From Pseudomonadota bacterium (GTDB taxonomy: Bacteria; Pseudomonadota; Alphaproteobacteria; Rhizobiales; Xanthobacteraceae), in the NCBI GenBank assembly GCA_018240595.1, contig JAFEFL010000063.1, positions 172,701-236,700 of the forward strand: DNA of 64,000 nt, written 5' to 3'. Below the pieces are notes generated by a model. That model was not told the DNA's origin. It saw only the letters and a list, made by a program, of their open reading frames with translations, and searched no databases. Position numbers and translations under genes: made by a program. Shown here piece by piece: positions 1-51,506 of this stretch; position 1 is the first letter of the stretch; every line of letters begins with the position of its first letter.

Positions 1-857
1 GCAATGTCGGTGCCCTGACGGATCGGCGCATAGAAGTCGGCCACCGACGCCGAGCGCGTGAAGCGCGGATCGACGACGATCAGCTTAGCGCCGCGATTGG
101 CTTTCGCCTCCGTGACCCATTTGAAGCCGCACGGGTGGGCTTCCGCCGCGTTGCCGCCCATGATGACGACAAGGTCGGTGTTCTTGATGTCCGTCCAAGA
201 GTTGGTCATCGCACCGCGACCGAATGTTGGGGCCAGACTGGCCACCGTCGGTCCGTGTCAGACTCTCGCTTGGTTGTCGAACGCCAGCATGCCGGCCGAG
301 CGGACCACTTTATAAGTGGCCCAGGCCGTTTCATTGGTGGTCGCGGACGCCGCCAGGAAGCCCGTGGTCAGCCACCGGTTGACGGTGACACCGTCGGAAT
401 TCTTGGCGATGAAATTCTTGTCGCGATCGTCTTTCATCAACCGCGCAACACGATCAAGCGCCTGATCCCAGGACACGCGCTCGAACTTGTCCGAGCCCGG
501 CTTGCGGATCTGCGGATACAACGTGCGCGTCTTGGCGTGAACGATGTCGAGGAGGCCGGCGCCCTTCGGGCACAACGTGCCGCGATTTGTCGGGTGGTCC
601 GGATCGCCTTCGATGTGAACGATGTCGGCCTTTTCGCCCTTCTTCAGATCGCCCTTGGAATACATGATGATTCCGCAGGCGACCGAGCAATATGTGCAGG
701 TGTTGCGGGTCTCGGTCAGGTTCGCGAGCTTCCAAGGCCGAATGGAACTCGCAAAGGCTTCTTCAATGTCTCCGAAGCCAAGCGCGCCGAGCGTTGTACC
801 GGCAATACCCACGCTGACGCCCTTCATGAACTGGCGCCGCGAGAGTTCCATATTCAT
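1..857 (-). CDS. fdnG: Formate dehydrogenase-N type alpha subunit, selenocysteine-containing (5' part; runs off window start)
   Basis: Tat signal SRRQFMK; Fe-S motif CTYCSVACG; the ORF-track stop at 258-260 is TGA in the context NQARV-U-HGPTVASLAPTFGRGAMTN, and the frame stays open to base 1 (…GGNAAEAHPCGFKW…VVDPRFTRSASVAD…). Confidence 0.95.
218..260 (-). promoter_or_regulatory. Bacterial SECIS element immediately 3' of the Sec UGA
   Basis: mRNA reads UGA CAC GGA CCG ACG GUG GCC AGU CUG GCC CCA ACA UUC GGU C: lower stem GACCGA/UCGGUC and upper stem GGCC(A)/(U)GGCC, the position and layout known for fdnG/fdhF SECIS. Confidence 0.8.
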
Positions 858-42228: not shown

Positions 42229-42304
42229 TGGTGGGCCCGGCAGGACTCGAACCTGCAACCAGACCGTTATGAGCGGTCGGCTCTAACCATTGAGCTACGG
42301 GCCC
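42229..42304 (-). tRNA. tRNA-Ile2 (anticodon CAU, lysidine type) with encoded CCA
   Basis: Reverse complement GGGCCCGTAGCTCAATGGTTAGAGCCGACCGCTCATAACGGTCTGGTTGCAGGTTCGAGTCCTGCCGGGCCCACCA; cloverleaf; paired G1-C72 excludes fMet; Ile2 versus elongator Met assigned by resemblance only. Confidence 0.9.
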
Positions 42305-50442: not shown

Positions 50443-50820
50443 TCAGCGTTTCGGCAGCTCCGGCGCGGCGGGGGCGGCGGCGGCCGTCTCGGCGGCGCGG
50501 CGCTCGTGGAACGCACGGGCAGCCTGCATGTCGTCGAGCAGGCGGCGCCTCATCCGGGCATCGCGCCGCGCGGCGATCTGCGGCGGCACGTCGTCCTCCG
50601 GCGGCAGCGGCGGCGCCGCGGCGCATTCGATATCCGGCGCGAAGCAGCGCCGGGAGCGCCGGCACATGGCGTGCTCGCAACCCTGCCACCAGCGCTGCTG
50701 ATCCGCGATGAGCCGCATGATCTTGCGCGCGAGGCGCAGGCGCTGCGTGTCGATATCCTGCGGCTTCGTATCGTCGTTATCGTCCCGGTCGGGACGCCGG
50801 CTGTCGCTCATGCGCGGCAT
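50443..50820 (-). CDS. Small hypothetical protein with C-x4-C-x5-C-x6-C motif
   Basis: GGAG RBS 8 nt before ATG; WWQGCEHAMCRRSRRCFAPDIEC; 125 aa. Confidence 0.65.
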   Translation of the reverse strand: MPRMSDSRRPDRDDNDDTKPQDIDTQRLRLARKIMRLIADQQRWWQGCEHAMCRRSRRCFAPDIECAAAPPLPPEDDVPPQIAARRDARMRRRLLDDMQAARAFHERRAAETAAAAPAAPELPKR

Positions 50821-50833
50821 GATGCTGTCTCCA

Positions 50834-50894
50834 TGGCTTGGCAGATTGGCTTGGCTAAATGGCTTGGCGCGTTGGCTTGACGAGATGGATTGGC
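50834..50894. repeat. Five direct repeats with 13-bp period (TGGCTTGGC-N4)
   Basis: 9-mers start at 50834, 50847, 50860 (TGGCTTGGC), 50873 (TGGCTTGAC) and 50886 (TGGATTGGC). Confidence 0.9.
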
Positions 50895-50913
50895 GAAGCG
50901 AGAGCGGGCGAAA

Positions 50914-51440
50914 GGCGCCTGCGTGATGGTGAAGAAGGCGGCCGGCCCTGAAAACGGGCGCGCGGCCTCACCCGTGTTGTTTGAGCGGCGCCGGGTACGC
51001 CGTCGTCGGAGGTCTTGGGCCTTGCCCTCACTTCGTCTCCACGCGGAGAAAAGTGCGAGGGCGCGGAGCGCCGTGAAACGCGGAGGTTTGCGAGACCTCC
51101 TGAGCGGCCGGCGCGGCCGCCCGAGACGCTGGCGAGGCGTCTTCTCTCCGCTTGCGATCGCGGAGAGGCGCCTCACGGCGCTCCACGTTGTGGCGATTTC
51201 TGTCCGCGGGGCCGTAGCTTCCGGATGACGGCTGCGATCGGCGCCCCTCGCGGGACGACGACCTCCGGCGGGCTTTCGCCCGCCTTCACCGGCACCGCGT
51301 CCAGCCCACTGAAGGGCGGGGGTTCGTAGTAACCCCGGACGGCTGCCCGCGGCCTCCCGGAGGCGGGGTTACGAGCCCCGCCCGCAGGCGCCACACCCTG
51401 CCCCACGTTCAGCGAGCGTCTGCAGAACGCCCCTCGCCTG
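50914..51440. ncRNA. Candidate large structured non-coding RNA or non-autonomous element (strand unresolved)
   Basis: Nested helices 50914-23/51383-92, 50985-94/51289-98, 51007-14/51260-67, 51065-76/51173-84 and 51314-37/51364-83, plus at least 8 local hairpins; no credible ORF. Confidence 0.6.
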
Positions 51441-51456
51441 GGACAAGGCGATTTGC

Positions 51457-51506
51457 AAGGTATAGAAGCCTAGGATGGAAGTCAAGGGGCTAAATTAGAC
51501 CCTTGA
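51457..51506 (-). promoter_or_regulatory. Sigma70-like promoter with overlapping palindrome, pointing into the structured element
   Basis: Minus strand TTGACT-N17-TACCTT (51485-80, 51462-57); palindrome TCAAGGG-G-CTAA-A-TTAG-A-CCCTTGA at 51482-51506. Confidence 0.5.

Follow-up and report, generated by a model that had tools for sequence, protein, structure and literature searches.

The locus and its tandem array

The window (the whole 64,000-nucleotide stretch of DNA that was analysed) carries on its minus strand a large structured RNA, a short tandem array and a small gene encoding a protein with four invariant cysteines, referred to here as the Cys protein. The features are given below in the order in which they are met on that strand.

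51457..51485, minus strand: candidate promoter of the RNA (TTGACT, about 17 nt, TACCTT), read from the sequence
50946..51452, minus strand: body of a conserved multi-copy structured RNA, about 500 nt, GC-rich, belonging to no Rfam family
50951..50976, minus strand: last hairpin of the 3' module of the RNA, CACGGGUGAGGCCGCGCGCCCG, followed by UUUU; 7 bp, -11.9 kcal/mol, z=0.06
50895..50945, minus strand: G-poor, C-rich upstream flank CCGCCTTCTTCACCATCACGCAGGCGCCTTTCGCCCGCTCTCGCTTC, which together with the array forms a C>G tract of ~110 nt
50834..50894, minus strand: tandem array with five units of 13 nt; each unit has a 9-nt core GCCAAGCCA and a pyrimidine-rich spacer of 4 nt
50886-50894, minus strand: core of unit 1, GCCAATCCA-TCTC, promoter-proximal
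50873-50881, minus strand: core of unit 2, GTCAAGCCA-ACGC, next after unit 1
50860-50868, minus strand: core of unit 3, GCCAAGCCA-TTTA
50847-50855, minus strand: core of unit 4, GCCAAGCCA-ATCT
50834-50842, minus strand: core of unit 5, GCCAAGCCA-T, then GGAG; RBS-proximal
50829..50832, minus strand: Shine-Dalgarno sequence GGAG, one base past the last core and 8 nt ahead of the ATG (50820-50818)
50808..50822, minus strand: start-codon hairpin UCAUGC-CGC-GCAUGA with the ATG in its stem; -8.8 kcal/mol, z=-0.5, ordinary against shuffles
50443..50820, minus strand: Cys-protein gene, 125 aa, Arg-rich, W-x2-C-x4-C-R-x-R-x-C-x2-P-x3-C

A search for the 9-mer GCCAAGCCA with at most one mismatch returned five cores in 50834-50894 (minus strand), set at an exact 13-nt period with zero indels; three of the cores are perfect and two carry one mismatch each. 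TRF reported the array at period 13 (score 50) and at period 26 (score 75). The five 13-nt-period repeats described in the initial annotation are therefore real, and the place assigned to them was also correct, i.e. they lie downstream of a large, conserved and structured RNA and ahead of the RBS of the Cys gene, with the copy nearest the gene abutting the GGAG. The two imperfect cores are the promoter-proximal ones, farthest from the RBS, in agreement with the proposed decay of the repeats towards the structured element.

Mismatches against the column majority are concentrated in the spacers (11 of 20 cells) and rare in the cores (2 of 45; Fisher p=1e-5), a contrast that has p=5e-4 when only the four true spacers are counted and for which the chosen frame is the best of 13 possible rotations. 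Spacer columns 11-13 are mutationally saturated and the 13-nt register is still undisturbed; 13 of the 16 spacer bases are pyrimidines and one is a G. The array can thus be described, as had been proposed, as a conserved core with free spacers. No further exact copy of GCCAAGCCA is present in the window outside the array, and a search of the 4.9-Mb genome with a two-unit array pattern found nothing comparable elsewhere, returning just one chance match with two mismatches. Neither a second non-coding array nor a complementary partner was found elsewhere in the genome. Outside the array the 9-mer clusters in coding sequence only, as Ala-Lys-Pro repeats (GCC-AAG-CCx), at about 28.5 kb of contig C11 and about 8.6 kb of contig C23. 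These coding clusters (G000:C11:28480-28680 and G000:C23:8560-8720) include AKPDEAKPDE and KPVAKPATKPVAKP, and the proteins that contain them are of histone-H1-like or PAKKA-type low complexity, with no relation to the non-coding array.

Logan contigs from sediment-metagenome DNA runs match 50790-50881 and 50895-50950 with zero differences and cover four of the units, which argues against an assembly artefact; these runs may be the source samples of the genome assembly. No contig or joint with a variant copy number was found among the Logan contigs; in four DNA runs, at a depth of 2-5x, the contigs end within the array or at its edge.

The four cysteines of the Cys protein are invariant in a protein family that carries no annotation. 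The protein has no match in Pfam, PADLOC or NCBIfam, and a word-index protein search returned the query alone. Its AF2 model (pLDDT 81) consists of a helix, a Cys knuckle and a long helix, and comparison of the model with the PDB gave no fold match. By profile search, 59 of the 228 species of the genus have the protein; across the family it was found in 49 of 401 sampled genomes, which represent 19 of 62 genera. The neighbouring genes code for an aminotransferase, a thioesterase and a transglycosylase, and none of them is a gene for replication, partition or regulation.

The array, the leader and the upstream RNA have no Rfam family match, either at the gathering threshold or at E<=5. Elsewhere in the window, Rfam matches at the gathering threshold were a bacterial SECIS element (SECIS_3, 205-263, minus strand, 85 bits) and a tRNA gene (42232-42304). 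The RNA has 16 matches in this genome at ~90% identity, several of them at contig ends and some of them fragments. Many contigs start or stop inside a copy (G000 contigs C40, C42, C45, C54, C11, which ends in one, C49, C43 and C74), so the RNA family is a major cause of breaks in the assembly and the 16 matches are a lower bound on its copy number.

The candidate promoter at 51457..51485 is the sole promoter-like signal upstream of the array and the gene, and a strict sigma-70 scan made no call there. A similar TTGAC...ATATTCCTAT context is found upstream of the RNA at other loci. (T)ATATTCCTAT forms direct repeats on or next to the TTGAC -35 box at L016 (at most 3 copies), L015, L019 and L020, and in the window at about 51457-51500; their position suggests that they may be an operator for a dedicated regulator. 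At the other end of the RNA, the hairpin at 50976-50951 with its UUUU is at best a weak intrinsic terminator, and the terminator scan made no call for it. The stretch from the RNA to the Cys gene gave no call for a sigma-70-like promoter or an intrinsic terminator, so the gene probably depends on read-through. A contig from a soil RNA run matches 50977-51238 of an RNA copy with 98% identity and covers the RNA body only; no RNA run was found with the array or the Cys ORF. One further run was matched by the orthologue from genome G009, at low depth and with the run type not given.

Leaders of homologous loci

The leaders of about 85 homologous loci were compared in a common orientation. A basal design is common to the different genera: a terminal GC-rich hairpin (CCGGCGC...GCGCGCGG) is followed by a G-poor linker of ~18-20 nt and GGAGA, with the ATG about 7 nt further on. 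In this design the hairpin lies 30-45 nt ahead of the ATG. Over the leaders read, the distance has a minimum of about 30 nt, roughly as far upstream as a bound 30S subunit extends, and a median of 42 nt. The linker has the consensus AACGAUCACCCAUGCC, ~18 nt, directly 5' of the GGAGA RBS (e.g. L035, L036, L044 and L133), at loci whose proteins are just 30-45% identical, and 19 of 48 linkers contain CAUG, where 4.3 would be expected. The element may be a binding site, a pairing partner or an upstream AUG. The window keeps a mere remnant of this element, CCATGGAGA at 50828-50836. A family-wide YCAAG motif, hinted at by the window, L010, L012 and L134, was considered and dropped, since k-mer enrichment over the 48 linkers gave basal AACGAU...CCAUGYCC words instead.

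The linker of the window, at 138 nt, is the longest among the well-defined linkers. Three orthologous loci (L011, L124 and L032) have the same variant of the RNA 3' module as the window (GGGUGAGGCCGCGCGCCC) together with its AGGAGAC RBS, and encode proteins 35-45% identical to its Cys protein. In these loci the linker is ~33 nt long and has no array; one CAACCGAU-like element stands in the position of the window's last unit. They also keep the last hairpin of the RNA and lack the U run, having UCAUGAA instead; the weak terminator may have arisen together with the leader expansion in the window's lineage. Most of the about 85 family loci have no array, and the six other RNA copies of this genome whose downstream sequence was read have neither a Cys gene nor an array behind them. 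The initial annotation had named absence of the repeats from other copies of the element as a finding that would speak against its reading, and the array is absent both from these six copies and from the three orthologues with the same 3' module. The comparison gives good support to the array being a lineage-specific expansion of ~85 nt, in which 13 nt just 5' of the RBS were amplified to five copies. Its absence from other RNA copies and orthologues, together with the unrelated nature of the repeats found elsewhere, points to a lineage-specific amplification and not to a conserved module.

In about ten other lineages of the genus, different tandem repeats with units of 9-17 nt occupy the same position, at roughly ten times the background frequency. 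With TRF scores of at least 40 and periods of 9-17, repeats were detected in 8 of 53 well-defined leaders, against a background of 1.4-1.5% (binomial p=1e-6), and with scores of at least 50 in 4 of 53, against 0.2-0.3%. For these counts the leader windows were 103 nt long and ended at the ATG, and the background was taken from the SD-preceded ORF starts of this genome and from random windows. The expanded leaders are as follows (unit length in nt x number of copies).

L007: 16 x 3.1 and 12 x 3.2, CAAGTGTTCCCATGAA and CATGAACACGAA
L010: 12 x 3.2 and 14 x 2.4, CTCAAGCT core
L017/L117: 13 x 1.9, CCCCATGCTCAAA
L092: 12 x 2, CATGTCCAATCA
L105: 10 x 2.8, CTTTCACAAT
L109: 17 x 3.1, CACGTCTCCTCACCAAA
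L121: 10 x 2.3, CCCCCTCTTG
L134: 9 x 2.8, CCAAGTCTC

All of the unit sequences differ, which indicates independent expansion events, and in the expanded leaders the array mostly reaches the RBS. The pattern of conserved core and free spacer is found in the window's array alone. All linkers are G-poor, with a mean G content of 0.19 and C content of 0.39, compared with 0.32 and 0.33 for the genome. In absolute terms the other expanded leaders have little structure as well, and relative to shuffles their z values range from -1.45 to +1.43. At L007 (G024:C44, about 495-585) each 12-nt CATGAACACGAA repeat contains an AUG in frame with the Cys ORF (MNTN-MNTT-MNTN...), so that judging by its reading frame, translation of this array could give an N-terminal extension, or the array could be a source of alternative starts.

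The recurrence of unrelated repeats of varied period at this spot, with most family members, including the three orthologues that share the window's 3' module, doing without any, is what would be seen if the array were a neutral by-product, i.e. if it were merely tolerated in an unconstrained, low-complexity and heavily transcribed place prone to replication slippage. Arrays such as those of L007 and L017 are indeed near-perfect, like young duplications. However, saturated spacers beside near-intact cores with zero indels (p=1e-5) are unexpected for decaying 13-nt copies, and the tract folds worse than 98% of its own shuffles. We judge a purely neutral origin to be improbable. The view taken in the initial annotation, that the repeats are binding sites and not the outcome of simple slippage, is borne out in one part, in that the constraint on the cores goes beyond neutral decay, but not in the other, as there is no conserved module and the units at other loci are unrelated, with periods of 9-17 nt.

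Composition and predicted structure of the leader

On the RNA strand the C/G ratio of 78-nt windows is 2.2-2.8 across about 50950-50833. The maximum of 2.77, at 50941-50864, falls in the top 0.03% of the genome's 78-nt windows, both strands included. The array with the SD (73 nt) has a minimum free energy of -7.6 kcal/mol (z=+1.88); of 200 dinucleotide shuffles, 196 reached an equal or lower energy. For the 125-nt leader this was the case for 189 of 200 shuffles. That the array lies below 98% of its own shuffles suggests selection against structure. When the whole transcript was folded, the mean unpaired probability was 0.61 in the array compared with 0.30 in the RNA body. Pairing of the array with the RNA body was rejected as a candidate, the RNAduplex energy being no better than that of 43% of shuffled arrays. 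The tract contains no in-frame ATG, GTG or TTG start of the Cys gene and is probably untranslated, being almost certainly the 5' untranslated region of that gene. Its description as long, strand-asymmetric, structure-avoiding, G-poor and C-rich is well supported.

Another RNA copy of this genome, L022 (G000:C11:~76357-76678 plus ~200 nt downstream), also has a C-rich, G-poor leader (78-nt C/G 2.45). This leader contains CCATCCATCCATCC and lies ahead of a 47-aa hydrophobic ORF, MVIGVAHLQPIVALLAGILILIMPRLLNFIVAAYLIVIGLIGLGIFR, making L022 a second pairing of the RNA with a small gene in this genome, with a different passenger gene.

A conserved core at fixed spacing in direct repeats is typical of cooperative DNA binders, and a place between a promoter-driven RNA and a gene would suit a roadblock. 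The array could accordingly be a DNA-level operator, whose protein sites stall RNA polymerase between the RNA and Cys genes, or an iteron- or centromere-like element. The period speaks against this: 13 bp is not a multiple of the helical repeat of DNA, so the five sites would be out of phase with the helix and would wind around it. The neighbours of the array are metabolic genes, so that neither the replication or partition genes nor the helix phasing looked for in an iteron or centromere was found, and the strand-asymmetric depletion of G and the avoidance of structure are properties of RNA and not of duplex DNA. Action at the DNA level is in our estimation very improbable.

The predicted lack of structure also bears on the loose resemblance to type III toxin-antitoxin loci mentioned in the initial annotation, according to which the repeats would be processed to small antitoxin RNAs that neutralise the Cys protein. 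The repeats of known systems of this type (ToxIN, CptIN and TenpIN) are about 34-40 nt long, folded into pseudoknots and cut to unit length. The window shares with these systems tandem non-coding repeats upstream of a small gene, probably on one transcript, and this loose order of promoter, repeats and small gene is the sole point in favour. Its units differ in being about three times shorter, at 13 nt, and predicted to be unstructured (z=+1.88). Furthermore, the Cys protein matches no ToxN, AbiQ, CptN, TenpN or other defence family; there is no toxin of an endoribonuclease family; no terminator intervenes between repeats and gene; a 500-nt structured RNA lies between promoter and repeats; and most family members have no repeats. 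The resemblance therefore breaks down for protein family, for unit size and structure and for the terminator, and we give a toxin-antitoxin function next to no credence.

Candidate roles of the array

The explanation that we favour, which we would put at somewhat short of an even chance, is that the array is a lineage-specific expansion of the leader that acts as a single-stranded RNA platform, rut-like for the loading of Rho and/or serving as a standby site for ribosomes. The tract would be transcribed, and Rho or ribosomes would act on it. The basal state, seen in many genera, is the ~500-nt RNA with its hairpin, the short G-poor linker, the GGAGA RBS and the Cys gene. In the window's lineage the 13 nt at the RBS were amplified to five copies, and the array with its C-rich flank forms a probably untranslated tract of ~110 nt that is predicted to be nearly free of structure and has C-rich anchors every 13 nt. 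This platform would decide the fate of transcripts reading through from the strongly expressed RNA gene. If Rho loads on the tract, transcription would terminate and a stand-alone RNA would result; 30S subunits would compete by using the tract as a standby site, in which case the Cys protein would be translated. A basal linker of 20 nt is not long enough for Rho, so that the gene and the abundant RNA would be expressed together, whereas on a naked tract of 110 nt Rho could uncouple the gene from the RNA, acting against 30S standby.

The rule for rut sites used by RhoTermPredict is a C/G ratio above 1 over 78 nt with C residues spaced every 11-13 nt (PMC6407284), and primary sites for Rho consist of YC-rich anchors joined by segments that vary in length and sequence (PMC12350095). 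The tract exceeds this C/G ratio (2.2-2.8 over ~78 nt) and has regularly spaced C residues, CC dinucleotides recurring at the exact 13-nt period in the five units. It is also predicted to be unstructured and, having no in-frame start, free of ribosomes. The conserved C-rich cores and free pyrimidine-rich spacers match the pattern of Rho anchors and linkers. A Rho gene is encoded in the genome (PF07497, 121.6 bits). The tract therefore resembles rut sites and Rho-dependent leader attenuators in being a probably untranslated stretch of ~80-110 nt that is C-rich, G-poor and structure-free, with anchors every 11-13 nt and free linkers (PMC6407284, PMC12350095), and its 5'-leader position is, as in such attenuators, one that permits competition with translation. 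A possible likeness to standby sites and C/A-rich enhancer tails lies in a predicted single-stranded tract 5' of the RBS, behind a very stable RNA structure and ahead of a start codon held in a small hairpin.

Several observations count against the platform. Rho needs YC dinucleotides only, and natural rut sites are not built of a precisely repeated 9-nt core, so that the retention of the full core, including its purines AAG, beside saturated spacers is left unexplained. The linkers of most family members, including the short linkers of the orthologues, are too short to use a Rho mechanism, and any role of Rho would have to be specific to the lineage. Relative to their shuffles, the other expanded leaders do not show a uniform lack of structure. 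As for standby, the basal linker of ~30 nt already spans the 30S footprint, the extra ~85 nt are not obviously needed, and the start-codon hairpin that would give a standby site its use is weak and ordinary.

Rho as a general terminator of all RNA copies was considered and set aside, being inconsistent with the sequence downstream of the other copies in the genome, where the maximum C/G is 1.3-2.45 and no consistent C>G tract is present.

The preservation of the cores beside saturated spacers leaves room for repeated sequence-specific sites, i.e. the five cores at 13-nt spacing may be bound by an oligomeric RNA-binding protein (the Arg-rich Cys protein is one candidate) that represses or activates translation in the manner of TRAP or HutP. 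Kept cores, saturated spacers and a spacing without indels are the signature of selection on both motif and register; the last site adjoins the RBS; and the tract, being predicted single-stranded, would be accessible. The AACGAUCACCCAUGCC element at the same RBS-adjacent place family-wide is a possible single-copy ancestral site, and the Cys protein is basic, with a Cys knuckle and no known fold, which makes a nucleic-acid-binding role possible. Leaders of the TRAP, HutP and CsrA type likewise have a short core repeated in register at fixed spacing, with free spacers, in single-stranded RNA next to the RBS. Unlike those of TRAP and HutP, the array has no known cognate protein, and while their sites are conserved with the regulator, the window's motif and array are absent from the orthologues. 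The core motif is moreover not common to other family members, whose leaders repeat unrelated sequences of 9-17 nt, no family or fold match supports RNA binding by the Cys protein, and no further non-coding cluster of the motif, such as would mark a regulon, is present in the genome. We regard specific docking sites for some such protein as rather unlikely. A still less likely version is the most specific one, in which the cores dock an oligomeric RNA-binding protein, most attractively the Cys protein itself, in a TRAP-like autoregulatory switch that would have evolved by tandem amplification of one ancestral site and would gate translation or termination where the RNAs of this new large structured family have their 3' end.

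Leaders with short tandem repeats are known, as are rut sites and standby sites; a rut-like tract made by exact 13-nt amplification, and recurring in other forms behind a new large RNA, would be an unusual variant of them. Taken alone the array is a local curiosity. What gives it importance is its position at a hypervariable joint of a unit that is otherwise conserved and consists of a new RNA and an unannotated four-Cys gene, and the independent expansions of the linker in about ten lineages represent a natural experiment on the tuning of the coupling between a non-coding RNA and its passenger gene. If the platform for Rho or ribosome standby is correct, the amplification of a C-rich unit of 12-13 nt would be a simple evolutionary route to a near-ideal rut site; if the cores are instead specific binding sites, they would provide a handle for finding the partner of an orphan RNA-protein pair.
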